A DNA stretch of 64,000 bases from Escherichia coli (GCF_044324785.1 NZ_CP172127.1), one strand, 5' to 3'; shown: positions 32,169 through 59,434, counted from the first letter of the stretch. Translations and numbers: made by a program. The notes: a model not told the origin generated them from the letters alone.

Positions 32169-35100
32169 TGGCTGCACATCATGAAGTGCATTTTGAACAA
32201 TATATTACCGAGCAGTTGGTGAACAATGGCTGGAAAGAAGGCCATTCCTGCCACTATGACCAGCAACGCGCCCTTTACCCGCAAGATGTCATGGATTGGG
32301 TAAAGGCCACCCAGCCAGATGCCTGGCACAAACTGAATAAACTGCATGGTGTGAATGCCGAGCAGGTGCTGTTGGAGCGTTTGGAAAAAGCCCTCTCTTC
32401 CCACAAAGCTGGCAGTAAAACAGGTGGCACCATTAATGTGCTGCGTAAAGGCTTTACCATTGCAGGTTGCGGCACGATTGCCATGGGCCAACGCAAACCC
32501 GAAGATGCGCGCAATGAAGAGCGTATAGCCCGTTATGAGCACAACATTTTGCGCGTGGTGCGCCAACTGAAATATTGCCCGACTCGCGAGTGGGAAATTG
32601 ACTTGGTGTTCTTTATCAACGGTCTACCCGTTGCCACCGCCGAGCTAAAAACCGATTTTACCCAGTCGCTAGAATCGGCGATTGCGCAGTACAAAGAGGA
32701 TCGTCTGCCCGTTGACCCAAAAACCAAGCGTAAAGAGCCGCTGTTAACCTTTAAACGCGGTGCAGTGGTACATTTTGCCATGTCTGATACAGAAATCGCC
32801 ATGGCGACCAAACTGGCGGGAGAAAATACCTATTTTCTGCCCTTCAATAAAGGCCATGATGGTTCTACCTCTGATTTGCCCGTACACATCAACTTGCCGG
32901 GTGAAGATGGAGAGTATCCGGTCAGCTATTTTTGGCAAGAAATTGCCCAAAAAGATAATTGGCTACGCATTTTCTACAGCTTTGTGTATGTCGAAACCAA
33001 AGAGGTTGCCGATAGCAATGGCAAGGTTGAGCGTAAGGAAACACAGATTTTTCCGCGTTATCATCAGTTAGCCGCAGTCAACAAGATGATTGATGATGCC
33101 CGCCAGAACGGCGCAGGCATGCAGTATCTTTGTGAGCACAGCGCCGGTTCGGGAAAAACCTCTACCATAGCCTGGACGGCCCATGATTTGATTCGTTTAC
33201 GCAGCACCGATGGTAAAGCGGTCTTTAAATCAGTGATCATTGTGACCGACCGCACCGTGCTGGATTCGCAGTTGCAAGATGCGGTGCAACAGCTGGATCA
33301 TCAATATGGGGTGATTAAGGTGATTGATCGCGAAAAGAGCAGCGAGTCGAAATCAAAACAGCTGACTGAAGCGCTATTGACTGGCACGCCGATCATTGTA
33401 GTGACGATTCAAACCTTCCCATATGCGTTAGAAGCGATTCTGACCAATCAATCTTTGGCACAAAGTAACTTTGCGGTGATCATCGATGAAGCACACACCT
33501 CGCAAACAGGCTCTACAGCCAAAGGGTTACGCGCAGCGCTTACTCTAAACCTTAGCCCTCAAGAGTTGGAGCAAATGAGCATTGAGGACATTCTTACTAA
33601 GGTGCAAGAAGCGCGCGCCATGCCCAAGAACGTTTCGCACTTTGCTTTTACGGCAACACCCAAGCACAGCACCAAGATGTTGTTTGGCCGCCCGAAAGAC
33701 CCTAACCAACCAGTGTCAGATGACAATCTTCCTGAATCGTTCCACCTCTACACCCAACGTCAGGCCATTGATGAGGGTTTTATTCTTGATGTGCTGGAGA
33801 ATTACACCCACTACGATACAGCCTACAAAATTGGTGAGAACAATCTGGATGAGAAGCGCGTAGACAGCAAACAAGCTCGCCGCGCGTTGGCGCGCTGGAT
33901 GTCACTGCACCCAACCACGGTCAGCCAAAAAGTCGAATTTATTATTAAGCACTTCAAGGCCAATATCGCTCACCTACTGGAAGGTGAAGCCAAAGCCATG
34001 GTGGTCACATCGGGCAGGCCACAGGCGGTGAAATACAAGCTTGCTTTTGATAAATACATTAAAAAGCATGGTATTGAAGGTATCCAAGCCTTGGTTGCCT
34101 TCTCGGGCAAAGTCCCCGGCAAAGATTTGGGTGATGAAGACAGCCAAGACCCGCTAGAAATTGATTTCGATAAAGAGTACACCGAGTACAACTTAAACCC
34201 AGACACGCACGGGGCTGACCTGCGCCATGAGTTTGAGAAAACCGAATATCGCGTCATGTTAGTCGCCAACAAGTTCCAAACGGGCTTTAATCAACCAAAA
34301 CTGGTTGCCATGTATTTGGATAAGAAAATATCCGATGTAGAAGCGGTGCAAACGCTGTCTCGCCTAAACCGCACCTATCCAGGCAAAGACACAACCTTCG
34401 TGATTGATTTTGTTAACGATCCACAAACCATTCTCAATGCGTTCAAAAAGTACGACAAAGGCGCGCAGCTTAATGAAGTGCAAGATGTGAACGTCATCTA
34501 TGACATCAAAGATATTTTGGATGAACAGAACATATACAACCATCAAGATTTAGAGTTGTTTAAGCAAGCGCGTGGTAAATCGATTCTCGGCCAATCACCT
34601 GACAAAAAGTCACACGCGCACAAGAAACTGCTAGCTGCCACACAACGCCCTACCGATGTGTTCAACGTTAAGCTCAAAGAGCTGGTTGATGCTGCAAACC
34701 ATTGGGATCAGCAATACAACAAAGCGCACCTTGCGGGTGATGAAAAAGCGGCGAACTACGCAGAATCTCAGCGCAGTGATTTCACCAAGCAGCGCGAAGC
34801 ACTAATGCGTTTTAAGTCAGATTTAGCTCGATTTGTGAAGCACTATAGCTATATGGCGCAATTGATTGAGTTTGGTGATCCTGAACTGGAAAACTTTGCC
34901 GCGTTTGCTCATTTGCTATCACGTCGATTGAAAGGGGTAACACCAGAAAACATCGATCTCAGTGCACTGGTACTAGAAAAATTCAAAATCAAATACGACA
35001 AAGAGCCGCTTCCAGAAGCGTTTAATCAGGTACTTGAACCTATCCGCCCCAACTATAACGACCCTGCGGATCGTGAACAGGCATTTCTTGCCGATATCAT

Positions 35101-35404
35101 TCGCCGCCTAAACGAACTGTTTGGCGATGTCGGCGACGAACCCGGTCGCCGAAACTTTGCCAACGGTACTATTACGCGTGTCACCCAAAATCCAATTGTG
35201 GTTGAGCAGATAGAAAAGCACGACAAGTCGATTGCCCTCAAAGGCGACTTGCCGCAAGCGGTGAAGCAAGCCGTTGTGCAGGCTCTGCTGAAAGAAGGTG
35301 ATATAGCCCGAACGCTACTCAAAGACCCACAAGTTATGGCAAGTTATGTTGAGTTGATTTTTGACATGATGAAGCAAGGTGCAGAACAGGCGGCGGTGAA
35401 ATAA
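32168..35404 (+). CDS. hsdR: type I restriction-modification system, restriction endonuclease/helicase subunit
   Basis: 1078-aa ORF with Walker A (SAGSGKT), DEAH-like VIIDEAH and helicase motifs; TAATG overlaps on both sides. Confidence 0.9.
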   Translation: MAAHHEVHFEQYITEQLVNNGWKEGHSCHYDQQRALYPQDVMDWVKATQPDAWHKLNKLHGVNAEQVLLERLEKALSSHKAGSKTGGTINVLRKGFTIAGCGTIAMGQRKPEDARNEERIARYEHNILRVVRQLKYCPTREWEIDLVFFINGLPVATAELKTDFTQSLESAIAQYKEDRLPVDPKTKRKEPLLTFKRGAVVHFAMSDTEIAMATKLAGENTYFLPFNKGHDGSTSDLPVHINLPGEDGEYPVSYFWQEIAQKDNWLRIFYSFVYVETKEVADSNGKVERKETQIFPRYHQLAAVNKMIDDARQNGAGMQYLCEHSAGSGKTSTIAWTAHDLIRLRSTDGKAVFKSVIIVTDRTVLDSQLQDAVQQLDHQYGVIKVIDREKSSESKSKQLTEALLTGTPIIVVTIQTFPYALEAILTNQSLAQSNFAVIIDEAHTSQTGSTAKGLRAALTLNLSPQELEQMSIEDILTKVQEARAMPKNVSHFAFTATPKHSTKMLFGRPKDPNQPVSDDNLPESFHLYTQRQAIDEGFILDVLENYTHYDTAYKIGENNLDEKRVDSKQARRALARWMSLHPTTVSQKVEFIIKHFKANIAHLLEGEAKAMVVTSGRPQAVKYKLAFDKYIKKHGIEGIQALVAFSGKVPGKDLGDEDSQDPLEIDFDKEYTEYNLNPDTHGADLRHEFEKTEYRVMLVANKFQTGFNQPKLVAMYLDKKISDVEAVQTLSRLNRTYPGKDTTFVIDFVNDPQTILNAFKKYDKGAQLNEVQDVNVIYDIKDILDEQNIYNHQDLELFKQARGKSILGQSPDKKSHAHKKLLAATQRPTDVFNVKLKELVDAANHWDQQYNKAHLAGDEKAANYAESQRSDFTKQREALMRFKSDLARFVKHYSYMAQLIEFGDPELENFAAFAHLLSRRLKGVTPENIDLSALVLEKFKIKYDKEPLPEAFNQVLEPIRPNYNDPADREQAFLADIIRRLNELFGDVGDEPGRRNFANGTITRVTQNPIVVEQIEKHDKSIALKGDLPQAVKQAVVQALLKEGDIARTLLKDPQVMASYVELIFDMMKQGAEQAAVK

Positions 35405-35958
35405 TGAATACTGCGTTTCGGGTTTTACTTACGTTCAATGCAACATCACTACTAGTGATTATCTTTGCGGTACAAAAAGGGTACTCACTCGGATATTTCT
35501 TTGGTGGTTTCGCTTGCTTCGATTGGATAGCAGCACTTCCGAACGCAGTATCATATTTACTCTATTTTCTTATCCCTGTTTTATCGACTGGATTGAGTAT
35601 TTGGCTGAGTAAGTATTTGGGTAAAGACGATTTTAAGGCGGGTGAAGTAGCGAGTATTGAGCATGCCAATAACAGCTTCCTACCAAGTTATTTGGGTTAC
35701 TTTTTCGTGGCGTTGAGCATTGGTAACTGGGAGACATTGTGGTTTGTTTATGGCGTTTTGTTTGTTTTTACTCTCTTATCGCAAGCACTCTACTTTAACC
35801 CATTGTTTTTACTGTTTGGTTATGAGTTTTATAACATTACAACCAAAAACGGAACGGCCATTTTCCTTATTAGCCGAGAGCGCTACAAGAAGCCAGATGA
35901 CATCGAAATATCATTGGCTTATCGAATCAATAATTACACATTTATCGAGCGAGGATAA
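35404..35958 (+). CDS. uncharacterised predicted membrane protein (about 4 TM), candidate defence-system component
   Basis: 184-aa ORF with four hydrophobic segments; start codon overlaps the hsdR stop (TAATG) and its own stop overlaps the next gene. Confidence 0.6.
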   Translation: MNTAFRVLLTFNATSLLVIIFAVQKGYSLGYFFGGFACFDWIAALPNAVSYLLYFLIPVLSTGLSIWLSKYLGKDDFKAGEVASIEHANNSFLPSYLGYFFVALSIGNWETLWFVYGVLFVFTLLSQALYFNPLFLLFGYEFYNITTKNGTAIFLISRERYKKPDDIEISLAYRINNYTFIERG

Positions 35959-36800
35959 TGATGGACCATGTACTGGCACATATAAAAACTAGAGCAAAAA
36001 AACGCATTTTCAAATTGGTTTCTGATCAATCTCTTTTTGATACCGTCACAATCGACTTAAATGCCTGTATTCCATACAATCCAGACCATAACCTTGACGA
36101 AGACTCATGGTTTAAAATTGAAGACTTTAGTCAAAAAGAGTTTTGTATTGAACTGCTAAAAAAAGACTATGATTCAAAAGACTACGATGACTTAACCAAA
36201 GATAACTTCGCCAAGATCGCCTACTTATTTGCAATTCAAGGTAATGATTTTTACTTTCAAAAAATCACTCCAAGCCTATTCGTAAAACGCAAAACGCTTG
36301 TTTTTGGTGAAGCCGCAGAAATTGAGAAGAGCCAAACACGTTTAGTAATAAACGCCTTACCTGATGCAGTGTACTTCAAAGTGGCCGATACCTTGATATT
36401 CAAAAATCTGGCAACGATCTCGAGCATTTTTAAAGGTATCGATGAGTTGTACAAGGAAGCAACAAAAGAAGAAGTTGAGCAGTTTTTAGATGCACAGTTT
36501 ATAGAGTTGGGTAATGACTACAACGTAGATAGCGTCTCAAAACCTAATAGAAAACGTATTGGCCTTGCTATGGCAACACTTGATGCGATGTCTGCTGACG
36601 ATAAAGCTAACATGCTTGATTATATCGACGGTTACTGCGGTGAACAGAAGCTGAAATTCGATAAAGAAAATCAGAAGTTTGAAATATCTAATGACGATGA
36701 GTTGAAGTTACTGCTTTATGGCATTGAACAACGCTTCTATACGACCCCGTTTGGCAAAGAAAAAAGGCTCGCTAACTCTGTAACCGCTATGGATAAATAA
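35958..36800 (+). CDS. uncharacterised 280-aa soluble protein, candidate defence-system component
   Basis: translationally coupled to the upstream membrane-protein gene (TAATG); AT-rich; no motif recognised by eye. Confidence 0.6.
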   Translation: MMDHVLAHIKTRAKKRIFKLVSDQSLFDTVTIDLNACIPYNPDHNLDEDSWFKIEDFSQKEFCIELLKKDYDSKDYDDLTKDNFAKIAYLFAIQGNDFYFQKITPSLFVKRKTLVFGEAAEIEKSQTRLVINALPDAVYFKVADTLIFKNLATISSIFKGIDELYKEATKEEVEQFLDAQFIELGNDYNVDSVSKPNRKRIGLAMATLDAMSADDKANMLDYIDGYCGEQKLKFDKENQKFEISNDDELKLLLYGIEQRFYTTPFGKEKRLANSVTAMDK

Positions 36801-36820
36801 TAGCCCATTATCAGTAACAT

Positions 36821-37870
36821 ATGAAGGTTGATTCAATGGCCGATAACATCCCACAAGCTCCTCAAGGTGAGTTTGTTCTTTTCACCAGTGCTGATGGTCA
36901 AACCCGCGTTGAGTGTCGTTTTGAGTCTGACACCTTGTGGCTTTCTCAGGCTGCAATGGCAGAGCTTTATCAAGTTAGCTCTCAAGCAATCACCCAACAC
37001 GTAAAAGCTGTCTATTCTGAAGAAGAGCTTGAGCAAATTTCAACTTGTAAGGATTACTTACAAGTTCAACTGGAAGGTGGCAGAGAAGTAAAGCGAAGCA
37101 TTCGTCACTACAGTCTTCCGGTTATTCTTGCAGTAGGATACCGAGTTCGCTCAACACGTGGCACCCAGTTCCGCCAATGGGCAACCAGAATGTTGCAAGA
37201 ATACCTAATCAAAGGATTCGTCATGGATGACGAGCGCCTGAAAAATCCGCCCATTGGCCATTCTGCTGTGCCAGATTACTTTGATGAAATGCTGGAACGC
37301 ATTCGTGATATCCGAGCTAGTGAGCGTCGCGTTTATCTGCGAGTCAAAGAAATCTTTACCATGGCTGCTGATTACGAGCCATCTAACCAAGAGACCAACC
37401 GCTTCTTCCAAACCATTCAGAATAAGCTGCATTATGCTTGTACGCATATGACGGCTGCTGAGCTTATCGCCAGCCGTGTGGATGCCAGTAAGCCGGATAT
37501 GGGCTTAACCAGCTATAAAGGCGATGAAGTGCGCAAGACAGACGTTACTGTTGCCAAGAACTATTTGCGTGAAGACGAAATCAAAGAGCTTAATCGCATC
37601 GTCAATATGTGGCTCGACTTTGCTGAAGACCAAGCACTGCGTCGCAAGCAGGTATTTTTACAGGACTGGGCCGATAAGCTTGACCAGTTCTTGAGTTTTA
37701 ACGATAGAGATGTATTAAACGGTGCAGGAAAAATCTCCAAGAAAGACGCTGATGACAAAGCGAAATTGGAGTTTGACCGCTTTGCCCAGCAGCGCCGTCG
37801 TTTAAAAGAAGCCGAAGGCGCACGGGCCAATATCGCAGCCCTCAAGGCCATACTAAAAAAAGATAAATAG
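36821..37870 (+). CDS. RhuM-family virulence/defence-island protein
   Basis: 349-aa ORF; N-terminal region (FTSADGQTRVECRFESDTLWLSQAAMAELYQVSSQAITQHVKAVY...VAYRVRSTRGTQFRQWATRMLQEYLIKGF) is typical of the RhuM family. Confidence 0.7.
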   Translation: MKVDSMADNIPQAPQGEFVLFTSADGQTRVECRFESDTLWLSQAAMAELYQVSSQAITQHVKAVYSEEELEQISTCKDYLQVQLEGGREVKRSIRHYSLPVILAVGYRVRSTRGTQFRQWATRMLQEYLIKGFVMDDERLKNPPIGHSAVPDYFDEMLERIRDIRASERRVYLRVKEIFTMAADYEPSNQETNRFFQTIQNKLHYACTHMTAAELIASRVDASKPDMGLTSYKGDEVRKTDVTVAKNYLREDEIKELNRIVNMWLDFAEDQALRRKQVFLQDWADKLDQFLSFNDRDVLNGAGKISKKDADDKAKLEFDRFAQQRRRLKEAEGARANIAALKAILKKDK

Positions 37871-41643: not shown

Positions 41644-41926
41644 CTGGCGGGGGAAACACGATACCAGCGGGCGTGACTCGGGAGAATATATACCGCTGGT
41701 GGAACATTACCGGCCCTGATGGCTGGTGGCGTGCGTTACGACCTGAAAGACCATCCATGCGGGAAGGTGACACAGGAGCACCTGGCGAACGCGGGGAAGC
41801 GACTGGATGAGATTAAGAAAAAACAGCAGGAGCGCAGAAAAAGTAACCGTCTCATTAAAACGTCTTTCGCCTCCCTTTCCTGTTTCCTATGCTAATGTCC
41901 ATTTTCGCAGTAAAAGGACATTTACG

Positions 41927-42175
41927 ATGAATGCACGAAAGGCGGTACTGGCAGATAATCCGGAATTGATCCTGCGTTTGCTACAACTGAAATTTGACGA
42001 GACACTGTCGTACCCGCGCATTTCTGCACAGACCGGTGTCAGCAAAACCGCTATTTTTTCTCTGGTGAGGCGATTTCATCAGGTATTCACTGACGGGCAT
42101 CTTTCTGGTGAATATTCCTGCGTGCAACTGACCGGGCTCTTTTCCCGGGGCGATAATATTCAGCCCCGACAGTGA
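41927..42175 (+). CDS. hypothetical HTH-like protein
   Basis: 82-aa ORF from internal ATG with RBS-like AAAGGACA upstream. Confidence 0.3.
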   Translation: MNARKAVLADNPELILRLLQLKFDETLSYPRISAQTGVSKTAIFSLVRRFHQVFTDGHLSGEYSCVQLTGLFSRGDNIQPRQ

Positions 42176-42184
42176 CTCAGCCTG

Positions 42185-42440
42185 TAAAAACAGAGAAAAC
42201 CCGTCGGAACCGATTTTCACCAGAGTAAAAATGGAGACTTGTTCAGCAAACTCTTTTACCCGGAGCCTGTGTGGCCCAGATTGCACGAGAGTCTGGCATC
42301 AATGATAATGTTATTTTCAAATGGCTCAGACTCTGGCAAAACGAAGGGCGTGTTTCGCGGCGTCTTCCGGTAACAACCACTTCTGACGCAGGCGTTGAAT
42401 TATTACCTATGGAGATAACGCCGGATGAGCAGAAAGATCC
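42185..42440 (+). pseudogene. IS3-family transposase OrfA remnant (frameshifted, 3' deleted)
   Basis: pieces ...KTRRNRFSPE... and VAQIARESGINDNVIFKWLRLWQNEGR resemble IS3-family OrfA HTH regions; followed by unrelated sequence. Confidence 0.45.
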
Positions 42441-42978
42441 GATGATTCCCCTACCGCCAGCTTTTCGCCTGCGCCGGTATACGTTTCTTTATCTTTGCCC
42501 TGCATCACCCACAGGCTGGCTCCGCCGATAATGGCGTTTTGTGGTGCATCTTTCGCGTCAGCGTCGTAAGGCATCATGCCTACGCCGTAGTTGAATTTGG
42601 CGTACTCGCGAATGTTGGCAAGAGAACCGGAAGAGGCGGTGGTCATCGCGCAATCACCTCTATAGAACTTCTCGGTGGATTCATCCTTACGCCCGACGTA
42701 GATGAAGTCGCCCTTCTTGTTCATCTCCTCGAGCATGACGATGTGTTTCACCTGCTCCGGCTTGTTGAACTCCAGCACCGCGTCCGTGGCGTCAAAACCG
42801 TTGTTTTTGCTGGCAAACGGCAGACCGTTCCTGGCGCTAAAGTTTTCCAGTTGTATCCACCTCTTTGCCCATTTCCCCTTCCATAGAGTTCCAAAACGGA
42901 ATGGTCGTCACTGCCTGTGCATTGCCCATTAACGCCAGTCCGAGCACCAGTGATGAAGCTGTATAATGTAACGGTTTC
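42440..42978 (-). pseudogene. ugpB-like glycerol-3-phosphate ABC transporter substrate-binding protein remnant
   Basis: minus strand encodes [42 protein letters not shown] then frameshift joined to ...[49 protein letters not shown]...[18 protein letters not shown]; central part deleted and C-terminus truncated. Confidence 0.7.
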
Positions 42979-43735
42979 ATCGTTTATCTCTCTTGCTTGT
43001 TGTACCTGATGTGCAAATTCACTCGTTTTATGCTCGCGGGATTACATATCATGCCCGAATTGCAGAAAAATAACTTTTTATTACATGTGTAAGACAGTAA
43101 AACCTCAGAAAGATGACAGTGTGGTGCCGGCGCGGGTGAGGAAAAATGGAAGATGGGGAATGTATAAGCGGGAAAATAGGAGGGCCTGTGGATTGTAGAT
43201 AATGTGCTCATCGTTTTCATGCCGGATGAGACATAAACACTTTTATCTGAGCATTTCTATGTATTCGGACAGTTGTTCTTGGCATCCAATGGTGCAGGTT
43301 CTGTAGTGTGTGGTGGTAGCAATAGCCTCAGCTTCATTACAATATTTATTATCTCAAACATTCAAATGTCCTTGGCCCACTTTGATAGTCACTTTGTCGT
43401 GGTTATTATGTCTTTCCTTTTCCTAAAGCCCCATTATCTGTGCTGCAGCTTTCCCTCCATCAACGAACCAACAACCAGCAATGCCTGTCCCCCATAACAG
43501 CCCGGAAAATGGCACATTCTCAGATGATTTATCCCGCGAGCTATCCCGCCTACAGCTAATCGACCTGTTTAATACATCTTGACAGTCTGCTGGCAAGGTT
43601 ACCCTTCCCAATATTGTCCGTTTTTAACATATCTAATACGAGCCCCCATCAAATATGCTTCGTGTTCACTGTAAGTGACTAAAAGTGCTGTCTGCCCTGC
43701 CTCATGCAAAATATCACGAACTTCACGGCTCAGTC

Positions 43736-44237
43736 CTACCCTTGTTTTTTATCCAAGCTGGAAAATGGTTCATCTAGCAACAGGATATCTGGATTTGGAA
43801 CCAGTGACCTTGCAAGGGCAATACGTTGCTGCTGACCTCCTGAAAGTTCATGAGGATAGCTGTCTGAATAGTGGAATAAATCCACCATTTTCAACAGTTC
43901 TGTAACTCTGGTTCGCTGTACATCTCTCGGCAGTCTTCTCAGACCAAAGCCACGTTTTGTGAAACTGTAAGGTGGGGAAAGAGCGCATATTCCTGAAAGA
44001 CTATACCGACATGACATTTCTCCGGCGGAAAATGCATATCTGCGCTGGCCACACAATGCTGTGATACAAAAATTTCCCCTTGTTCAGGCGCTCAAAACCA
44101 GCTACAGCACGTAGTACTGTTGTTTTTCCACAACCTGATGTACCAAGCAGACATGCCAGTTCACCTTTACAGACTGACATACCCCCCGCCCCGCAATACA
44201 GGATATGGGCTATTGGGATAAACAACATGGACATCAT
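43736..44237 (-). pseudogene. ABC transporter ATP-binding protein remnant (frameshifted)
   Basis: Walker A GTSGCGKTT in one frame, signature LSGGQQQR and Walker B ILLLDEP in another. Confidence 0.7.
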
Positions 44238-44267
44238 TAATACATAAAGCTGTTTCTTCAGACATAA

Positions 44268-44868
44268 TCAATCCTCTGATTTCAGTCTTTCAGCTGGAAC
44301 AAACAAAATAACCGGAAATGTCCCTGCAAGAACAATCATTAAAGCAGAGATGGCCCCTTCTTCAAAAGTTCCACGGGCTGCTTCAGCATAAAGAAGTGTT
44401 ACTGGCAGTTCTTTCATCGCATCAGTGAAAACCAGCAGGGCACTGCTCACCAGAGCAACACAGGAAAGTGAACCCGAACAAAAGTTCCTGTACCATTTTC
44501 TCCCAGCAGACGTGAGGCTTGTTCCAGTGACTCTGGTATACGTCCCAGCCGGACATCAAGTGCGCCGATGGCTATTGCCTGAAATCGCATCGTACAGCAA
44601 ATCACCAACAGGACACCGACAGACATTAAAGGTAACCCCCTGTAATCCAGTAGTTCCGCCAGCCAGCGGTCATTTAGGGAGTCAGAAAACCAATCGCCAG
44701 AATCGTGCCTGGAAAGGCATAACCCAGCGACGCCACTCTCATCACACCGCGCCTGAACAGTGGCATAGCGTTGAGGAATTCCGGGCATTCCAGACTACGA
44801 GCAGACTGACAAAAATTACGACAAAGCGTTGAAGGAAGCCAGCGCGCGGACTGACAGGACTTTACCAT
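44268..44868 (-). pseudogene. ABC transporter permease remnant (frameshifted)
   Basis: three consecutive ORF pieces with permease-like hydrophobic segments split across frames. Confidence 0.55.
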
Positions 44869-44918
44869 AAAAACACAGGCTAACCGCGCCTGCGTTTTTA
44901 ATGACGGATGAAACAGAA

Positions 44919-46499
44919 TCAGGTGCCGATTATGCCGCCGTCGGCTTTTACGATAACGACAGTTGAGGAGCGCGGACGACCAGCCTTATCGCCGTCAGGC
45001 CAGCTTGATACTGCCGTCGGATGCTGCGGATCGCTAAGCCCTTCGCTTGGCTCGCCAGGGTGCTGGATGTTAATAAACAGCGTCCGGTTATCCGGAGTGA
45101 ACGCGATGCCGGTGATTTCGCAGCCGCGCGGGCCGGTCAGGAAGCGGCGGAACTCATTGGTACCGGGGATCGTCGCCACCATCTGGTTGTTGCCCATGCC
45201 TTTGTAATCTTTAATATTTATGGTTGATGACGACACGTCGGTCTGGATCCATAGCACGCCGCGGTGATCAAAGCTCAGGCCATCGGCGCTGCCGAATTCC
45301 GCACCCTTCATGCTGCCTTTGGTTTCCAGTTTGTCTGTATCGGTGCGACCGCCCATCACAAGAATATCCCAGGCAAACTGCAGCGCGGTCGGGTCACCGT
45401 TATGCTCCAACCAGTGAATGATGTGGCCGTAAACGTTTTTGGCGCGCGGGTTGGCCGCATCCACTGGCGCTTTTCCTTCCTTACCGCGATCGCTGTTGTT
45501 GGTGAGCGTGCAGTAAACGCTGCCGGCGTGATATGGATCGACCGCAATCCACTCCGGGCGGTCCATTTTAGTGGCCCCCACGGCGTCTGCCGCCAGACGG
45601 GTTTTAATCAACAGGTCGCCCTGGTTTTCAAACCCTTTACTGGCGTCGAGCCCATTTTGTCCGAACACCAGCGGTAGCCACTCGCCTTTGCCGTCGTCGT
45701 TAAATTTCGCCACGTACAGAGTGCCTTTTTCCAGCAGGTGCATGTTGGCTTTGCGATCCTGCGGGTTGAATTTTCCTTCCGAGACAAATTTATATATGTA
45801 TTCGAATTTCTGGTCATCGCCCATATAGACCACAACGCGGTTATCCGGGGCAATTGTCACCGCTGCGCCTTCGTGTTTGATGCGACCAAGCGCGGTGTGC
45901 TTGCGCGGCACTGAATGCGGATCGTATGGATCGATTTCCACCACCCAGCCGAAGCGGTTCGGCTCGTTCGGCGTGGCGTCGACGCTGAACCTTTTATCCA
46001 CTTCGTTCCAGCGGTAAGAGTCGTCGCTCCCGCTGATACCGTAACGTTTTTCCAGCGGGTTCATCTCTGCTTTTTTTACGAAAATATCGGACCAGTTCTC
46101 TTCACACGTCAGATAGGTGCCCCACGGCGTAAATCCGTTGGCACAGTTCTGCATGGTGCCGAGAATGATTTCGCCTTTCGGATCGTCAACTGTTTGCATC
46201 AGTGGGTTATGCAGCGCCGGACCGGTGATTTTCATCGGCGTGTTAACGGTGATGCGGCGTGCGAACGATGACGGGCGCACCACTTCCCAGCCCAGGGGCA
46301 CTTTTTTTACTTCAATGACCGACACGCCCATCGCGTTCTGGCCTTTAAGAGCTTTATCGGCGCTCCAGTTGGCATCGCCATCTTTAAACAGTAGACCGTT
46401 ATCGATGTATTCATGGTTTATGGCAAGCAGGCCGTGATCGGAGCTGTTCCCTGATGCGCCGCGCGATAAATGCACTCTATCTTGTGCGATAAATGGCAT
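44919..46499 (-). pseudogene. PhoX-like (DUF839) phosphatase, N-terminally truncated at the prophage junction
   Basis: 526-aa ORF lacking a signal peptide and N-terminal region; homology starts near ...GLLAINHEY...; upstream end abuts the invertase end of the prophage. Confidence 0.5.
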
Positions 46500-46529
46500 C
46501 CACGCGGCGTTTCATTATTTGAAAAAGAA

Positions 46530-47102
46530 TTACATTTCAGGTTGCGTTATGACAGTCCCAACAGGGTGGTAGCGGTAGATCGTTGACAGTCCAATATCAT
46601 AGATAATTGCCAGCCGCTTTCTGTCATACCCTTTCTGGAGCAATCTTGCGATCTGCTCATGCTGCTCCTTCGTCAGTTTCGGGCGACGTCCTCCAACTCT
46701 TCCTTGTGCTCGCGCAGCAGCCAGTCCTGCCAGCGTGCGCTCAACTATCAGTTCACGCTCCATTTCTGCCAGTGCACCCATCATATGAAAAAAGAACCTT
46801 CCCATCGGAGTGCTGGTATCGATTGAATCCGTCAGACTGCGAAAATTGACACCTTTTGCGCGTAGCTCTTCTGTGAGAGCAATGAGGTGTTTCATTCTTC
46901 TACCCAACCGATCCAGCTTCCAGACCACCAATGTATCCCCTCTTTTAAGGCACTTTAAAGCGCGTTTCAGGCCTGGTCGTTCCGACTTGGTTCCGCTCAT
47001 TTTGTCCTCAAAAATCTGTTCACATCCTGCGCACATTAATGCATTGCGTTGCAAATCTGTGTTTTGGTCATTTGTTGACACACGTATGTAGCCAATCAGC
47101 AT
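46530..47102 (-). CDS. site-specific DNA invertase (serine recombinase, Gin/Pin/Cin/Hin family)
   Basis: 190-aa product MLIGYIRVSTNDQNTDLQ... with catalytic Ser in YIRVST and C-terminal HTH; adjacent to inverted tail-fibre cassettes. Confidence 0.9.
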   Translation of the reverse strand: MLIGYIRVSTNDQNTDLQRNALMCAGCEQIFEDKMSGTKSERPGLKRALKCLKRGDTLVVWKLDRLGRRMKHLIALTEELRAKGVNFRSLTDSIDTSTPMGRFFFHMMGALAEMERELIVERTLAGLAAARAQGRVGGRRPKLTKEQHEQIARLLQKGYDRKRLAIIYDIGLSTIYRYHPVGTVITQPEM

Positions 47103-47156
47103 TAAAAATACTCCCTTTTGAGTGGTTAAAGTACTGAGATAATGTGGGGAGGATTT

Positions 47157-47182
47157 GAGAGATAAACGTTGGTTTAGGAGAA
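47157..47182. promoter_or_regulatory. candidate gix/cix-like crossover site 1
   Basis: GAGAGATAAACG-TT-GGTTTAGGAGAA; right half matches the gix half-site GGTTTTGGATAA at 10 of 12 positions; lies at the start of cassette C. Confidence 0.5.
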
Positions 47183-47686
47183 GGCTCGGCGCTACCCGTT
47201 GGTGTGCCTGTTCCGTGGCCCACCGCCACACCGCCAGCAGGCTGGTTAAAGTGCGACGGGCGCGCCTTTACAAAAGAACAATATCCTGTTCTGGCCAGAG
47301 TCTACCCGACCCTCCGTCTTCCCGATTTACGCGGTGAGTTTATCCGTGGATGGGACGACGGGCGCAAAGTTGATACAGGACGTAAGTTGCTGTCCGCACA
47401 AGGGGCAACGCTGTTAAGAACAGCAATGCTGGATTATTATAACCAGGACACTACGGGAACCTCGGGGATAGTCGGCATGGGATTCAACAATGAAGATTCC
47501 ATTACAGACCTTCGTGAGGGCAGCTTTAAAATGCCGGACGGGACAACATTCAGCGATCCTGTCGTGGCAATGTCAGACAATGGTATGCAGGCTACTATTC
47601 TGACCTCTATCAGAAGCGGGTATGCGAAGGGTATCACTGTCAGACCCCGTAGCATTGCACTTAATTACATTGTGAGGGCAGTTTAA
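47162..47686 (+). CDS. tail-fibre C-terminal (receptor-binding) cassette C, promoterless, inverted relative to the tail-fibre gene
   Basis: reading frame open from 47159 (no ATG) encoding NVGLGEGSALPVGVPVPWPTATPPAGW...RGWDDGRK...NYIVRAV, homologous to the C-terminus of the 642-aa tail fibre. Confidence 0.7.
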   Translation: MNVGLGEGSALPVGVPVPWPTATPPAGWLKCDGRAFTKEQYPVLARVYPTLRLPDLRGEFIRGWDDGRKVDTGRKLLSAQGATLLRTAMLDYYNQDTTGTSGIVGMGFNNEDSITDLREGSFKMPDGTTFSDPVVAMSDNGMQATILTSIRSGYAKGITVRPRSIALNYIVRAV

Positions 47687-48300
47687 TGAGTAACACTGCA
47701 GTTCTGGATGAAAACGGTATCGCCACTGTAGCGGGCGAGATCACTGTATATCACTATGACGAGGAAACCCGGGAATACACCTCATCCTCTGTGGAGTATC
47801 TCGCCCTTGGGGTGGGTACTCCGGCACATTCGTGCGCCGATGCACCGCCGGAGGCAATTTCGGGTTACGTGGTTTGCCGGACTGCCACGCTGAACGGGTG
47901 GGAGCATGTGCCTGATCACCGCGGCGAGACGGTATACAGCACGGAGAACGGTAACCCCGTTCTGATTACCCAACCGGGTGATTACCCGGCGGACACCACC
48001 ACAAAACAGCCGGCCACGCCATGGGATACCTGGAACGGTGAGGCGTGGGTAACCGATACTGAACGGCAGCGAGCCGCAGAACTGGAGGTTGCCAGACAGC
48101 AACGCCAGCAACGGGTGAAACAGGCGATGGCGTCCGTCGATCTTATCAACCTCAAACTGCGTGCTGGTCGCAGTCTGACACCAGAAGAAACGGCAAAACT
48201 GAACGCCGTGCTGGATTATATCGACGAGCTGAACGCACTGGATATCAGCACGGCACCTGAAATCAGCTGGCCGGAAGCGCCACTGGCACTTGCCAGCTGA
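47686..48300 (+). CDS. tail-fibre assembly protein (Tfa/U-type chaperone)
   Basis: 204-aa ORF overlapping the end of cassette C (ATGA), in the usual position of a tail-fibre chaperone. Confidence 0.7.
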   Translation: MSNTAVLDENGIATVAGEITVYHYDEETREYTSSSVEYLALGVGTPAHSCADAPPEAISGYVVCRTATLNGWEHVPDHRGETVYSTENGNPVLITQPGDYPADTTTKQPATPWDTWNGEAWVTDTERQRAAELEVARQQRQQRVKQAMASVDLINLKLRAGRSLTPEETAKLNAVLDYIDELNALDISTAPEISWPEAPLALAS

Positions 48301-48306
48301 ACGGTA

Positions 48307-48780
48307 TCACGCCGCCCTCACGATATAGTTAAACGCGATATTGCGGGGGCGGGTTATGTTAAAGAATGCTCCGTTTAATTCGGCTTTTGCGCGACTGTTT
48401 GTTCCACCCAGAATTGCGTACCACAAATAATCGCTACGGTAATTCCCCGCAAACACCTTATCGCCGCCATAGTCAATATTATTTCCGTTACTCATGTACG
48501 AGATATCCAGCGAAGAATCGTTATCGTCATGACCGCCGACCAGTGTACCTTTCTGCCATGAAAGCAACTTACGCCCCTCGTCAATCTTGCGCCCGTCGTC
48601 CCATCCACGGATAAACTCACCGCGTAAATCGGGAAGACGGAGGGTCGGGTAGACTCTGGCCAGAACAGGATATTGTTCTTTGGTGAACGTAGCTCCGTTG
48701 CACTGTAACCAGCCTGCTGGCGGTGTGGCGGTGGGCCACGGAACAGGCACACCAACAGGCAATGCAGAGCCTTCCCCCAA
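48307..48780 (-). CDS. tail-fibre C-terminal cassette B (alternative receptor-binding domain)
   Basis: 157-aa ORF (TTG start) GEGSALPVGVPVPWPTATPPAGWLQCNGATF...NYIVRAA; frame open upstream through crossover site 2. Confidence 0.65.
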   Translation of the reverse strand: MGEGSALPVGVPVPWPTATPPAGWLQCNGATFTKEQYPVLARVYPTLRLPDLRGEFIRGWDDGRKIDEGRKLLSWQKGTLVGGHDDNDSSLDISYMSNGNNIDYGGDKVFAGNYRSDYLWYAILGGTNSRAKAELNGAFFNITRPRNIAFNYIVRAA

Positions 48781-48795
48781 ACCAACGTTTTTATG
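48770..48795. promoter_or_regulatory. candidate gix/cix-like crossover site 2
   Basis: reverse complement CATAAAAACG-TT-GGTTTGGGGGAAGG, inverted relative to site 1; lies between the tail-fibre stop and cassette B. Confidence 0.5.
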
Positions 48796-50719
48796 CGGCC
48801 CTTACGATGTAATTAAACGCAACATTGCGGGGGCGCATTGATATCCATGCCCCGGTAAAATTATCCTCCGCTGTCCTTTGAATACCCGTTATAGAGTTAT
48901 CTGCTGATGCAGGAACATAATCGCTATTATTTCCTGCTTTAGGATTAGCTGGGTTTCCAACGGTTATAACAGAATCAGCAGTAGCAAAAGCGATACCTAC
49001 TTTGACATTAGTATTCAGATCGTAACCGTAATAATCCTGCAAAGCTGTACGAATAAATGTTGCAGCCTGACCACTTAGCAATGAACGCCCCGTATCAACT
49101 TTGCGCCCGTCGTCCCATCCACGGATAAACTCACCGCGCAAATCGGGAAGACGGAGGGTCGGGTAGACTCTGGCCAGAACAGGATATTGTTCTTTTGTAA
49201 AGGCGCGCCCGTCACACTTTAACCAGCCTGCTGGCGGTGTGGCGGTGGGCCATGGAACAGGCACACCAACAGGCAGTGCAGAGCCTTCCCCCAAACCAAG
49301 GTAATTGAGGACATCTTTTATACTGCCCTTAGCGATAATAGCGCGACCAATAGCTGTAAGGGTTGCCAGCGCTGCGCGGTCTGCTCCGGTAAAATAAGGC
49401 AACCGATCTGCTGCAGTGGCAAGTCCTGCCAGAGCAGTGAGCGTGGCATCTGCCGGTTGTTTTCCGTTTGCCAGATCGTATGCAGCCTTGACCGCTTTCG
49501 GTGTGGCGGCCAGTATTTCAGACGTGCTGTTGATGGCACTGCTCAATTGTATGGTGCCTTTTGCCGTCAGCGAGGCAGCAGGCACTCCCGTTATCTGACT
49601 CCACGGGTGAGTGTGGCTGACGGGCGCCTTGCCGGCTGCAAGGTCGTATGCAGCCTTGACCGCCTTCGGCGTGGCAGCCTCAGTTTCTGATTGACTGTCC
49701 GTGGCGCTGCTCAGTTGTACGGTGCCTTTTGCCGTCAGCGAGGCAGCAGGCACTCCCGTTATCTGACTCCACGGGTGAGTGTGGCTGACGGGGGCCTTGC
49801 CGGCAGCCAGGTCATATGCAGCCTTGACGGCCTTTGGTGTGGCGGCCAGCGTTTCAGAGGTGCTGTTGGTGGCACTGCTCAGTTGTACGATCCCTTTACG
49901 GGTCGTTGTTGCATCCTGGGCTGTGTATTTTCCCCGGGCCAGATCATACGCGATTTTCACAGCCTTCGGCGTGGCAGCCTCAGTTTCTGATTGACTGTCC
50001 GTGGCGCTGCTCAGTTGTACGGTGCCTTTTGCCGTCAGCGAGGCAGCAGGCACTCCCGTTATCTGACTCCACGGGTGAGTGTGGCTGACGGGGGCCTTGC
50101 CGGCAGCTAGGTCATATGCAGCCTTGACGGCCTTTGGTGTGGCGGCCAGCGTTTCAGAGGTGCTGTTGGTGGCACTGCTCAGTTGTACGATCCCTTTACG
50201 GGTCGTTGTTGCATCCTGGGCTGTGTATTTTCCCCGGGCCAGATCATACGCGATTTTCACAGCCTTCGGCGTGGCAGCCTCAGTTTCTGATTGACTGTCC
50301 GTGGCACTGCTCAGCTGTACGGTGCCTTTTGCCGTCAGCGAGGCAGCAGGCACTCCCGTTATCTGACTCCACGGGTGAGTGTGACTGACGGGTGCCTTGC
50401 CGGCTGCAAGGTCGTATGCAGCCTTGACGGCTTTTGGTGTGGCGGCCAGCGTTTCAGAGGTGCTGTTGGTGGCACTGCTCAGTTGGGTGAACCCCTTAGC
50501 TGTCAGTGTCGCGTCCGGGTGGTTACGGGAACGTACGTGTTCAGCCAGTGACTGTGCGGCTTCCTCCGTTTTTTTCTTCAGCCATTTCGTCCTGTTTGCC
50601 AGTTGCCGGGGGGCTCGATTTGATATCCCGTCAGCACCACCCAGAACCGGATCTGATGTCTCCAGTTGATAGATTTTTTCTTCCCACTTTTCTGTTTCAT
50701 TCAGGTTTCCCATAATCAA
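48791..50719 (-). CDS. phage tail fibre protein with repeat-containing shaft and C-terminal domain A
   Basis: 642-aa ORF; central about 100-aa tandem repeats (SETLAATPKAVKAAYDLAAGK...); C-terminus GLGEGSALPVGVPVPWPT...NYIVRAA. Confidence 0.85.
   Translation of the reverse strand: MIMGNLNETEKWEEKIYQLETSDPVLGGADGISNRAPRQLANRTKWLKKKTEEAAQSLAEHVRSRNHPDATLTAKGFTQLSSATNSTSETLAATPKAVKAAYDLAAGKAPVSHTHPWSQITGVPAASLTAKGTVQLSSATDSQSETEAATPKAVKIAYDLARGKYTAQDATTTRKGIVQLSSATNSTSETLAATPKAVKAAYDLAAGKAPVSHTHPWSQITGVPAASLTAKGTVQLSSATDSQSETEAATPKAVKIAYDLARGKYTAQDATTTRKGIVQLSSATNSTSETLAATPKAVKAAYDLAAGKAPVSHTHPWSQITGVPAASLTAKGTVQLSSATDSQSETEAATPKAVKAAYDLAAGKAPVSHTHPWSQITGVPAASLTAKGTIQLSSAINSTSEILAATPKAVKAAYDLANGKQPADATLTALAGLATAADRLPYFTGADRAALATLTAIGRAIIAKGSIKDVLNYLGLGEGSALPVGVPVPWPTATPPAGWLKCDGRAFTKEQYPVLARVYPTLRLPDLRGEFIRGWDDGRKVDTGRSLLSGQAATFIRTALQDYYGYDLNTNVKVGIAFATADSVITVGNPANPKAGNNSDYVPASADNSITGIQRTAEDNFTGAWISMRPRNVAFNYIVRAA
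49284..49309. promoter_or_regulatory. candidate crossover site 3 inside the tail-fibre gene
   Basis: reverse complement CTCAATTACC-TT-GGTTTGGGGGAAGG encoding NYLGLGEG at the constant/variable junction; same orientation as site 2. Confidence 0.4.
49390..50520. repeat. 300-bp tandem repeats (about 3.5 copies) inside the tail-fibre gene
   Basis: identical 71-aa and 84-aa antisense ORFs recur 300 bp apart (49779/50079 and 49834/50134); protein shows repeated ...SSATNSTSETLAATPKAVKAAYDLAAGKAPVSHTHPWSQITGVPAASLTAKGTVQLSSATDSQSETEAATPKAVK... Confidence 0.85.
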
Positions 50720-51306
50720 CTGCTCCCGTGGTTATAACTGCCATCATGGATGGCGGTATTGTTATAGCGAATGGCCACAGACTGATACTCCAGGCTGGCC
50801 AGATGGCAGCGGGCCGGTGCAAATGCAGCGAGCGTCTGACGCAGCATCGCGGCCTGATCGTTAGTAATGGGCTGTTTCAGAATAACGCGATAAACCGCCC
50901 AGGCGGCTGCATCTCCATGAACAAACAGTCCGTTATAGCTGCGATTGCCGTCGTAACTGAGACGACCTGTGCCTTCAATCAGATCCACTTCACCAAAGCC
51001 AAAACGGCGGATAACTTCCCGGATTGACCACGGCGTCCCTTTATACCGGTGTAGTTCGATGGCTGCTTTTATAAGCATGCGGCGAACATCGTCCGATTCC
51101 GCCAGCTCCCAGCCATCGCCAGACAGTGAGAACTGCTCGCCCAGCCATGGCAGCGCAGAACTGTCGACGATATCGACGAGAAAGACCATCAGTACGCTCA
51201 GGTCGATGTTATCCAGCCGCCCTGCCAGTCTTCCCAGCGTCCTGAGACTGATATCACCCTCAAGCGGTGGCGGGAGTTGTAATGGCTCAGTCATCAGACA
51301 CTCCAC
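50716..51306 (-). CDS. phage baseplate/tail protein (P2 gpI-like)
   Basis: 196-aa ORF directly upstream of the tail fibre, overlapping the J-like gene. Confidence 0.6.
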   Translation of the reverse strand: MECLMTEPLQLPPPLEGDISLRTLGRLAGRLDNIDLSVLMVFLVDIVDSSALPWLGEQFSLSGDGWELAESDDVRRMLIKAAIELHRYKGTPWSIREVIRRFGFGEVDLIEGTGRLSYDGNRSYNGLFVHGDAAAWAVYRVILKQPITNDQAAMLRQTLAAFAPARCHLASLEYQSVAIRYNNTAIHDGSYNHGSS

Positions 51307-52390
51307 TCATGTTAAGTGTGATCGCCGTACAGTTTGCCCATTCGTTTTCTGCCACCACCCTCAGTGCCGGTGTCACCAGTTCAACCTGGTACACCCCGGA
51401 AACGGACAATGCACTGATAATCTGGCTGGGGACAATATCACGCCCCAGCGTGGCGGCACGTGATGCCACCCAGTTCTGTATGGCGCTGTTAGCGGCATCT
51501 TTTACAGACCTGGCATCCTGATCACGATAGATCGTAATCCTGGCTTCAATGGTGTAATCCACCTTCACTGGTGTTTTAGCCCGCACTGTATCAGTGAGTG
51601 GCCTGACTTTCTCATCAGAGCAGAAACTCTCTACCAGCGTGAGAACACCGCCGTCCGGCAGACCGGTACTGAGCAGCGGATACAGATCTACGGTCCCGGG
51701 AACCGGGGAAAGCACAGCAACATCGACAATGTTGGGATGGGCCTGCATGGCATGAAAGCGGTATGCGCCACGGCTTCCGGCATTGGTGAATGACTCCGGG
51801 GCCAGCCTGATACGCTCCCGGAGCCTGTCATCGTCTTCCTGTTCTGAACCGCCGGAACTGGCCGTCAGATTGCTCACCAGCAGGTCGACGTTATCAATCT
51901 CATCGAGTAACTGACTGACCTGCGCAGGTTGCCAGCCGTTACCAGCGGTACCGGGTTCGGTACAGGTGGACGTGACATTGACCAGCAGCAATCCGGCCTT
52001 CAGTACCACATCTGTATCGGTGGCAAAAATAACGCTGTCGGAAGCGCTGACGCGGGTGCCTGCCGGGATCAGCACATCAATGGTCAGTGCCTCATCCACA
52101 GAGAACTGAAGTGTGGTGGTGGCAGGCTGCGCGGCAAGGCGGTATACACCAACCAGTTCTCCGAGGTAATCAATCATCGGCTCTCGTGAAAAGGCGACCA
52201 GATTCTGCTTTGCTGCCTCCTGTACCGCAACCCTGACCAGCATTTCGCGATAGGCCCACAGATCAATCAGCAGACGTTCTGCCTGTGCCGGGTACAGCGT
52301 TTTGCCGGTATCCGCTTCATACTTCGCAATCATTTCTGCCGTGATTTTGTCGGCATCGCGTTCAATAAAATCGGGTTCTGTCAGCGCCAT
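51287..52390 (-). CDS. phage baseplate J-like protein
   Basis: 367-aa ORF in the conserved V-W-J-I-H order. Confidence 0.7.
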   Translation of the reverse strand: MALTEPDFIERDADKITAEMIAKYEADTGKTLYPAQAERLLIDLWAYREMLVRVAVQEAAKQNLVAFSREPMIDYLGELVGVYRLAAQPATTTLQFSVDEALTIDVLIPAGTRVSASDSVIFATDTDVVLKAGLLLVNVTSTCTEPGTAGNGWQPAQVSQLLDEIDNVDLLVSNLTASSGGSEQEDDDRLRERIRLAPESFTNAGSRGAYRFHAMQAHPNIVDVAVLSPVPGTVDLYPLLSTGLPDGGVLTLVESFCSDEKVRPLTDTVRAKTPVKVDYTIEARITIYRDQDARSVKDAANSAIQNWVASRAATLGRDIVPSQIISALSVSGVYQVELVTPALRVVAENEWANCTAITLNMSGVSDD

Positions 52391-52728
52391 AGCAACTCCT
52401 GAGTCCGGGTCTGTCCGTCTGAGCCTTTCCAGCTCACCCGGAGCGTAAGATGTTCGCCGTCGACGGCGGGTTTAACTGACATAAGCTGGCAGCGGGGCTC
52501 CCAGCGTCGGATGGCATCGACGGATTCGCGCACCACATGCGGAATGGCCCGGTCTACAGGCCAGTCGATATAAAGATGCAGATTGCTGCCGAACTCCGGG
52601 CGATGCGGGTCGCTGCCGCGGGGAGTCCGCAGGATAATTTGAATCGCCTGCCGGATATCATCCAGCCCCCGGACAATTTCGCCGGGAGCCTGCAGGGTCG
52701 GTTGCCAGAATACTGAGGTTGTTTTCAT
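52381..52728 (-). CDS. phage baseplate wedge protein (GPW/gp25 family)
   Basis: 115-aa ORF overlapping the J-like gene. Confidence 0.7.
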   Translation of the reverse strand: MKTTSVFWQPTLQAPGEIVRGLDDIRQAIQIILRTPRGSDPHRPEFGSNLHLYIDWPVDRAIPHVVRESVDAIRRWEPRCQLMSVKPAVDGEHLTLRVSWKGSDGQTRTQELLWR

Positions 52729-52782
52729 GGGGGCAGTATTGCCCCCGTGCGGGAACGCTGATATTAAAGGCGTTTAAAAAGC

Positions 52783-53379
52783 TCAGTGGGAGTGGTGGCT
52801 GGAGTTTTCGCCATCAGACAACATACTGCCCGTGGCATGGGCATTCCCTTTAATCTCGATATTGCCATGGATGGTCGCGGTAACACCTTCACCACCAGAA
52901 CCCGCCATGCCTCCTTCGTAAATCAGCTTACCCCTGACACGCAGATCTCCGGTAAGTTCGGTTTCCGGTGCGTCAATCGTGGCTTTCTGTGTTTTCAATA
53001 CCACATCAGCACCACACTCAATGACAATATGCTCAATGCCGCCCCGGATGATCAGAGTGTGCGTCTTCCGGTTGTAGCTGTACTCTGCACCATCAGCAAA
53101 CCGGGTTCCCCGGATATTTTTGTCACTGAACGGTGGTTTATCGACGTCTGAATACACCGCGCCCAGAATAACACCATCCTCGCCGTTGGCATCGAGCAGC
53201 ACCTCAACCTGCTCCCCCACGTCAGGGAGCCAGTAATCTTTGTTATCCTGGGTATTGCGCTGCAGCACGTTAAGCCAGTTTGTGCGCAGGTTATCGCATT
53301 CAGGCAGACGAACGCGGGCCTGAACCCTGTCGGCATCAACGGCACTGACCGTACCGACCTGACGAGTGACACCAGTCAT
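52783..53379 (-). CDS. phage baseplate assembly protein V (spike)
   Basis: 198-aa ORF with OB-fold-like N-terminus and glycine-rich C-terminus. Confidence 0.65.
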   Translation of the reverse strand: MTGVTRQVGTVSAVDADRVQARVRLPECDNLRTNWLNVLQRNTQDNKDYWLPDVGEQVEVLLDANGEDGVILGAVYSDVDKPPFSDKNIRGTRFADGAEYSYNRKTHTLIIRGGIEHIVIECGADVVLKTQKATIDAPETELTGDLRVRGKLIYEGGMAGSGGEGVTATIHGNIEIKGNAHATGSMLSDGENSSHHSH

Positions 53380-54548: not shown

Positions 54549-54751
54549 GGGGCAATATCCTCTTCTGTACGGGCTTCTTCAGCCTCAATCACCGGGATCA
54601 GTAACAACAGCCCGGAGGGCAGCACCGGCGTGATGGCCACGTGCGGATTGGCGGCAATAATCCGGGGATAGCCCAGCGGGTCACCGTAGTACTGCCATGC
54701 CAGCGAATCCCAGCGCTCTCCGTCACGGGTAACATGTTCAAGAAACATCAC
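54536..54751 (-). CDS. phage tail protein X-like (small LysM-like tail protein)
   Basis: 71-aa ORF overlapping neighbours in the tail operon. Confidence 0.55.
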   Translation of the reverse strand: MMFLEHVTRDGERWDSLAWQYYGDPLGYPRIIAANPHVAITPVLPSGLLLLIPVIEAEEARTEEDIAPWLR

Positions 54752-58844: not shown

Positions 58845-58919
58845 AGTGGTTAACCTCCGGGGAAGGTGAAAAGACGTGAGGGGATAACGCAGAACAGCCG
58901 CTACTGGCGGCTGTCTGTA

Positions 58920-59337: not shown

Positions 59338-59434
59338 GATTGTGCTCCTGTGTAAGTTCAGGGCAGTATGTCGGGAGAAGCGCGTGACGGATATTAAAGG
59401 AGATTAAGAAGAAGGGGCCGGAGCCCCTGTGATG

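Follow-up and report, generated by a model that had tools for sequence, protein, structure and literature searches.

In Escherichia coli, ugpB codes for the sn-glycerol-3-phosphate binding protein and is part of the Pho-regulated ugpBAECQ operon. Another type of importer, found in Enterobacteriaceae, combines a substrate-binding protein (SBP), a fused permease and a short ATPase, with an architecture resembling that of ThiBPQ, Fbp and PhnS2T2U2. The intact homologues form a three-gene operon, in which the gene for the binding protein (345-349 aa, SBP_bac_6/8/11) lies upstream of that for the 562-aa fused permease, and the gene for the 225-227-aa ATPase is the last one; PGAP names these proteins "iron ABC transporter permease" and "ABC transporter ATP-binding protein". 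The reference operons used in this analysis were from C. freundii (locus L003) and from another E. coli locus (L005).

Pseudogene-rich islands at the tRNA-Phe genes pheV and pheU of E. coli have been described (PMC11537424), and the island considered here is similar to them in its tRNA-Phe site and P4-type integrase, as well as in its mixed cargo with IS and ICE remnants, iha being present in the sister copy; phoX, ugpB and the debris described below are not mentioned in that report on pheV island evolution.

The debris is located at positions 42185-44868 of a window of 64,000 nucleotides, which is the whole stretch of E. coli DNA that was analysed. In the window, a tRNA-Phe gene (15328-15403) is followed by an integrase gene; the genes 5' of the tRNA translate to DsbD and YjdC, and therefore the site is pheU. 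From the tRNA gene to position 46451 the sequence shows about 99.6-100% identity with the island of E. coli 702/18, the copy of which is located at pheV. In the identical 702/18 copy all four described items of the stretch are annotated as pseudogenes by PGAP, and the PGAP coordinates given below are those of the 702/18 annotation transferred to window positions.

The stretch very probably represents a mosaic of unrelated fragments collected in a tRNA-Phe (pheU) island, and not one decaying operon; judging from the state of its reading frames, nothing in it is able to make a working protein. The earlier note had described a run of pseudogenes among remnants of mobile elements, and the run is indeed placed as reported, with homologies far beyond chance: three of its four items (the ugpB-like fragment, the ATPase and the permease) were confirmed, and the fourth, a transposase remnant, is real but had been assigned to the wrong IS family. 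Debris of this sort is ordinary, known in kind and already so annotated in RefSeq, and it has little biological weight, being a textbook case of genomic islands collecting and eroding cargo. Hidden functional elements were also considered and dropped: no Rfam family was matched between 41000 and 47000, no Pfam family was found on the antisense and intergenic ORFs of the debris, and a promoter and terminator scan of the debris was no richer than that of shuffled sequence.

phoX and the end of a prophage

The debris is bordered by phoX, which belongs to the Tat-exported alkaline phosphatase family and occupies 44919-46451 on the minus strand with codons 150-659 (Pfam PF05787, 502 bits). When the intact 659-aa PhoX was used in tblastn, residues 150-659 alone were matched in the window; residues 1-149, including the SRRRLLQAG motif of the intact protein, are missing, and with them the Tat signal. 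In 702/18 the gene is intact (659 aa, 44919-46898 in window coordinates), and homology to that strain ends at 46451. From the position of this break, the 5' 447 bp of phoX are split off by a prophage inserted at 46451/46452, and phoX is thus likewise inactivated in the window strain, by a transposable element. The prophage end, covering 46452-64000, is BcepMu-like (Bcepmuvirus) and shares 98.7% identity with Escherichia phage PhiKM, a member of Bcepmuvirus whose genome contains a transposase gene and genes resembling those of Mu; the terminal sequence of the prophage is TGATGCGCCGCGCGATAAATGCAC... The same phage end adjoins gspL in the ST131 strain DA33135, which fits insertion by transposition. 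The junction between phoX and the prophage was absent from the complete E. coli genomes of the collection.

On the other side, the phoX 3' untranslated region (44823-44918, minus strand), defined by comparison with plasmids and by a hairpin scan, contains a terminator-like hairpin at 44876-44892 and meets the permease remnant at 44822/44823. The stretch as first delimited, ending at 44868, overshoots the permease by about 45 bp into this region. The approximately 100 bp after the phoX stop codon are also found on E. coli plasmids, where they come after a different phoX. Furthermore, a scan of 100,044 species genomes for PhoX retrieved 80 loci from other species (60-81% aa identity), and none of them has an orthologue of the permease or of the ATPase beside PhoX. 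These two findings indicate that the junction between phoX and the permease is secondary, and an ancestral linkage of phoX with the ABC genes was ruled out by the 80 loci. phoX is a separate module, intact in other strains.

In an alternative reading, the debris derives from a horizontally mobile phosphorus cargo that was once coherent and comprised PhoX, an ABC importer of organophosphates and a Pho-controlled UgpB. PhoX, UgpB with its promoter region and a transporter with a weak match to 2-aminoethylphosphonate importers are all related to phosphorus, and another, plasmid-borne phoX adjoins a phytase-like esterase. However, this transporter occurs near none of the 80 PhoX loci, its NCBIfam scores are far below the cut-offs (251 versus 457 bits), so that no substrate is assigned, and the pieces differ widely in their divergence from known sequences; a common phosphorus cargo is therefore unlikely. 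A more elaborate version, slightly more doubtful still, is that a mobile phosphorus module (PhoX, an importer of organophosphate or phosphonate type and a Pho-controlled UgpB) once moved between Enterobacteriaceae, phoX alone being kept intact by selection in about 90 or more complete E. coli genomes. If this were true, phosphate starvation might still act on the ugpB promoter region that has been kept.

The ugpB remnant and the IS66 fragments

One piece of the mosaic is the ugpB remnant. It lies on the minus strand and DNA alignment resolved it into three parts: the upstream (promoter) region that came with the gene (42981-43231), the start codon with codons 1-40, which include the signal peptide (42860-42980), and a distal part corresponding to codons ~195-325 of 438 (42472-42859). 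In tblastn, residues 1-43 of E. coli UgpB match 42980-42852 in frame -3 (E 8.5e-20) and residues 188-328 match 42895-42458 in frame -1 (E 8e-79); the distal part is also recognized by Pfam SBP_bac_8 (E 1.6e-8). The two frames agree with the earlier description of an N-terminus and a C-terminal half fused out of frame. The fragment retains the ATG at 42980, with the same start codon and signal peptide as E. coli ugpB, while codons 41-194 are lost through a 461-bp deletion, which is out of frame (461 mod 3 = 2). The deletion junction (42855-42860) falls inside a TGGAT direct repeat, and TGGAT is found at both borders in the intact gene. The 3' end carries an additional lesion, absent from the earlier note: the gene is cut at ~42472 (codon ~325 of 438), with the loss of the last ~113 codons, and the break adjoins the IS66 tnpA remnant described below.

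Thus, a full-length 438-codon UgpB ORF is absent in spite of the clear homology; ugpA, ugpE and ugpC do not follow the fragment, and tblastn revealed no UgpA homologue in the window. RefSeq annotates in 702/18 a partial "extracellular solute-binding protein" pseudogene at 42458-42859 and a 47-aa hypothetical protein, corresponding to the ORF at 42837-42980. The fragment has its own upstream region of about 250 bp, extending to ~43231, which still reads CTGTCATCTTTCTGA; in our reading this resembles the Pho box in the ugp promoter of E. coli. Such a promoter could still drive the 47-codon ORF.

The close resemblance to the chromosomal ugpB that had been remarked on before was borne out, since the distal coding part has 92.8-96.4% nucleotide identity to the chromosomal alleles of about 5,420 complete E. 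coli genomes. The fragment had been called a paralogous copy, a term that is loosely right as to homology, and one may ask whether it is a recent intragenomic duplicate, i.e., a true paralogue of the strain's own ugpB. Codons 195-325 are in fact inside the allelic diversity of E. coli, being 96.1% identical to the E. coli C allele in a four-way comparison, in a region where E. coli alleles mutually differ by 3.4-5.7%. However, none of the ~5,420 chromosomal alleles is more than 96.4% identical to the fragment, and the upstream region shows only ~80% identity to the E. coli alleles, with 49 private differences in 249 bp, compared with 97-99.6% among the alleles themselves; in addition, the fragment travels with the island across different host backgrounds. 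The first two findings argue against a recent duplication of the resident gene as the source of the fragment, an origin that is about as improbable as the mobile phosphorus module. The donor was probably a close relative of E. coli.

The mobile-element remnant that meets the broken end of ugpB is a tnpA (accessory protein) of the IS66 family, located on the plus strand at 41840-42465. NCBIfam model NF038385 recognized it in two ORFs, 41807-42175 (E 4.7e-16) and 42271-42531 (E 8.4e-8), with scores below the curated cut-off, as expected for fragments, and on both pieces the only NCBIfam matches were IS66 TnpA models (NF038385 and NF047595). By blastn, the IS66/ISEc23 tnpA region of plasmid CP057113 matches 41840-42302 at 90.8% and 42258-42440 at 89.6%; by tblastn, residues 11-97 of ISEc23 TnpA match 42205-42465 (E 1.7e-43). 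PGAP places an IS66-like TnpA pseudogene at 41927-42531 in the 702/18 copy. These model matches and the approximately 90% nucleotide identity contradict the previous identification as an IS3-family OrfA remnant; the generic Pfam family HTH_Tnp_1, which IS66 TnpA also matches, gave a weak hit (E 0.018). The remnant begins upstream of the stretch as first delimited, at ~41840. It is frameshifted, has an internal stop and is cut at its 3' end where the ugpB break meets it. Two tnpA-like copies, 41840-42302 and 42258-42440/42465, seem to be combined in it as a hybrid.

A second IS66 piece, on the minus strand at 43405-43525, is probably a scrap of the 3'-end of an ISSfl4-like tnpC. The match is weak and at the nucleotide level, with 72-72.6% identity over ~121-127 nt to IS66 tnpC and ISSfl4 ORF3 (E 7e-6 in one search, E 1e-6 in 160 plasmid records); at the protein level, both tblastn with ISEc8-type TnpC and Pfam were negative. 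A search for a complete IS66 element found no tnpB, intact tnpC or recognizable inverted repeats.

Remnants of an ABC importer

The remaining part of the stretch contains, on the minus strand, the end of a permease gene followed by an ATPase gene. The ATPase pseudogene (43599-44265) was identified by three-frame translation and frameshift-aware alignment, and is labelled "frameshifted" by PGAP. It is full length, with 224 codons versus 225-233 in the intact homologues, but its frame changes four times: near 44187, where there is a G-run, near 44084 and 43950, and near 43750, where there is an A-run. The three PF00005 motifs, Walker A, LSGGQ and Walker B (ILLLDEP), are legible, but the four frameshifts spread them over different frames, and no single reading frame holds all of them. 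Frameshift-aware alignment gave 72% aa identity to the C. freundii homologue. The conceptual translation was also searched among 5.8 billion proteins, where the best intact match had 70% identity: intact relatives from Buttiauxella, Rahnella and Citrobacter are 69-70% identical, and the one at the other E. coli locus 65%. Two candidates for closer relatives were rejected. P0063 (75%) comes from a Logan assembly and corresponds to this very pseudogene locus, read there with 7 single-base indels. EC332, the only full-length copy at 97% in E. coli, was examined as a less decayed variant and has just a 52-nt insertion.

The permease remnant (44268-44822), recognized by tblastn and frameshift-aware alignment, is the C-terminal third of a fused double-domain protein: residues 360-554 of 562 are left, and the first 359 codons, 64% of the permease, are lost. 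PGAP describes it as "frameshifted; missing N-terminus" and names it "iron ABC transporter permease". Frameshifts are present at about 44774, 44676 and 44461, together with a 13-codon in-frame deletion near 44400, and the two in-frame transmembrane domains of intact proteins (2 x BPD_transp_1, ~562 aa) are not found. The remnant has 82.7% aa identity to the C. freundii protein by frameshift-aware alignment. The comparison with intact homologous operons, which the earlier note had proposed, thus mapped four frameshifts in the ATPase and three in the permease, at positions that are approximate (about ±10 nt) because no intact relative closer than ~70% aa identity for the ATPase and ~83% for the permease was found. 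Both descriptions given there hold: the ATPase is split between frames along the whole gene, and the permease is in three main frame pieces, to which one of 16 codons has to be added.

No curated NCBIfam equivalog is reached by the remnants, nor by their intact homologues; the best match is of the 2-aminoethylphosphonate type and far below cut-off. In particular, the ATPase remnant has PhnT2 as its best match, with 203 bits against a cut-off of 457.7, and the intact C. freundii ATPase scores 251.7 bits against the same cut-off; among the curated importer families PhnT/PhnT2, FbpC, ThiQ and PotA, none is reached by the ATPase at cut-off.

The stretch had been interpreted as an old transporter operon, i.e., a single unit with a ugpB-like binding protein, an ATPase and a permease, decaying in place between mobile elements. 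In favour of this view, a 2.4-kb segment has three ABC-importer components in the same orientation, and all three are pseudogenes. However, in the intact operons the ATPase/permease pair is accompanied by a 345-aa SBP_bac_6/11 protein and not by UgpB, and this cognate SBP gave no match by tblastn over the whole window. The ugpB fragment, located 3' of the ATPase, is preceded by ~250 bp of upstream sequence of its own; the gap of ~370 bp between them contains the IS66 tnpC scrap, and UgpA is missing. Moreover, ugpB has 93-96% nucleotide identity to E. coli, whereas the ATPase has ~65-72% aa identity to any known protein, which indicates very different histories. To judge from these arrangements, the ugpB fragment and the ATPase/permease pair are from different transporter systems, and UgpB is not the partner of the latter. 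Thus, the separate upstream region, the different system, the intervening tnpC scrap and the absent SBP are those of a mosaic, and a single operon is very unlikely, well below the readings considered above.

Distribution, origin and comparison with known systems

Of 5,426 complete E. coli genomes, 50 carry the 3-kb stretch as a whole, in most cases with 100% identity, and the carriers come from chickens, humans, swine and kites in several countries; the ABC remnant is found in 54 genomes. About 38 further genomes contain phoX and a 537-bp permease scrap only, as in the leuX island of BEN2908, which has the three permease frameshifts in common with the present locus, in the same frames. The permease lesions are therefore older than the split of the island types.

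That the frameshifts are sequencing or assembly errors in genes that are really intact has a practically negligible probability: two of the seven are near homopolymers (the G-run at ~44187 and the A-run at ~43750) and the alignment with one Logan assembly of the locus contains 7 single-base gaps, but five are outside homopolymers, identity is 100.0% and gapless over 1,689-3,001 bp in dozens of complete genomes from different laboratories and hosts, and the 461-bp ugpB deletion, the 359 lost permease codons and the missing SBP gene are beyond base-calling error. Lesions that recur in over 50 complete genomes, each assembled independently, with identities of 99.6-100%, are not errors, and the intact reading frames that would have overturned the earlier note are effectively excluded.

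From the lesions, homologies, junctions and distribution observed, we infer an order of events and the donor lineages. The debris was very probably assembled from at least three unrelated foreign or captured pieces, via successive deletions and IS66-family activity. One piece is an importer operon of the SBP_bac_6 type, in which the gene for the binding protein is lost along with the first 359 permease codons, and in which seven frameshifts have accumulated in what is left. The ugpB fragment probably derives from a ugpBAECQ glycerol-3-phosphate uptake operon on an Escherichia-like chromosome; a deletion at the TGGAT microhomology removed codons 41-194, and the junction with the IS66 tnpA remnant probably took away the rest of the ugp operon. 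The IS66-family remnants, tnpA and the tnpC scrap, make up the third piece. The debris probably persists by hitch-hiking on a recently spread island.

The practical value of these results is in annotation: the fragment does not count as a further ugpB copy, the two ABC genes are not to be listed as a working transporter for iron or any other substrate, and the IS remnant is to be named IS66 and not IS3. The shared lesions are usable as markers for tracing the island module between the pheV, pheU and leuX sites.

Compared with the known elements ISEc23 and ISSfl4 of the IS66 family, the locus has fragments only, the tnpA remnant having ~90% nucleotide identity and the tnpC scrap ~72% identity to ISSfl4 ORF3. 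The importer remnants share with the intact SBP-fused permease-short ATPase systems of Enterobacteriaceae the order of permease and ATPase, their spacing and the length of the ATPase; unlike them, they lack the gene for the binding protein as well as 64% of the permease, and carry seven frameshifts and the 13-codon deletion. The ugpB fragment is 93-96% identical to E. coli ugpB at the nucleotide level in the retained coding parts and its upstream region is recognizably homologous; it differs from the chromosomal gene in the loss of codons 41-194 (out of frame), of codons ~326-438 and of ugpAECQ, in the 20% divergence of the upstream region, and in its location in a tRNA-Phe island instead of beside livF.

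Divergence of the ugpB fragment

The ugpB fragment of the pseudogene stretch (42472-43231), in which codons 41-194 are deleted, shows highly non-uniform divergence from three E. coli ugpB alleles (loci L096, L097 and L002): the upstream region differs from E. coli by about 20%, codons 1-40 by 6-7% and codons 195-325 by 4%, private differences in this last segment being just 2.6%. Decay that is neutral and uniform would not give such a pattern, which suggests either that the fragment came from a foreign donor or that its distal part was gene-converted.

The island and its cargo

The island of about 31 kb (15328-46451) is present at 99.6-100% identity in E. coli 702/18 (loci L093/L001), where it occupies the pheV site (speC-yqgA-tRNA-Phe), while in the window it is located at pheU (dsbD-yjdC-tRNA-Phe). 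The cargo adjoining the integrase (16914-24505) looks like a sugar-utilisation cluster and, as judged from the annotation of the 702/18 copy, comprises a substrate-binding-domain regulator, an alpha-galactosidase, an MFS transporter, a GH32 hydrolase and a carbohydrate porin. Directly upstream of the pseudogene stretch, the region 28903-37870 encodes a type I restriction-modification system that is complete, with M, S and R subunits, along with a gene of the RhuM family. Next come genes for mobI(A/C), SSB and members of the PerC and ProQ/FinO families, which appear to be left over from a conjugative or mobilisable element.

phoX and the inserted prophage

Some 90 complete E. coli genomes encode an intact PhoX-family phosphatase of 659 aa on pheV, pheU and leuX islands (for instance, at L001 14920-16899, L008 8537-10516 and L090 3104-5083), and a related phoX lies beside a phytase-like esterase gene on E. 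coli plasmids. Outside E. coli, the nearest relatives, from Franconibacter, Siccibacter and Enterobacter, are only 76-81% identical. In the window, phoX (44919-46451, minus strand) is split at 46451/46452 by a BcepMu-like transposable prophage, which extends to at least 64000; codons 150-659 are the sole part of phoX left on this side of the prophage. No genome among 5,426 complete ones of E. coli has this junction between phoX and the prophage; in the ST131 strain DA33135, the same phage end is adjoined by gspL.

The prophage end

From 46452 onward the prophage has 98.7% identity to phage PhiKM. In a 642-aa tail-fibre protein (48791-50719, minus strand), a unit of about 65 residues recurs several times in tandem, the copies being nearly identical (…SETLAATPKAVKAAYDLAAGKAPVSHTHPWSQITGVPAASLTAKGT…). 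Nearer the phoX junction, a gene for a DNA invertase (46530-47231, minus strand) adjoins tail-fibre C-terminal and assembly genes that lie in opposed orientation (47204-48300, plus strand; 48307-48780, minus strand), and the whole region 46530-48780 resembles an invertible host-range segment of the Gin/Cin type, located at the end of the prophage.
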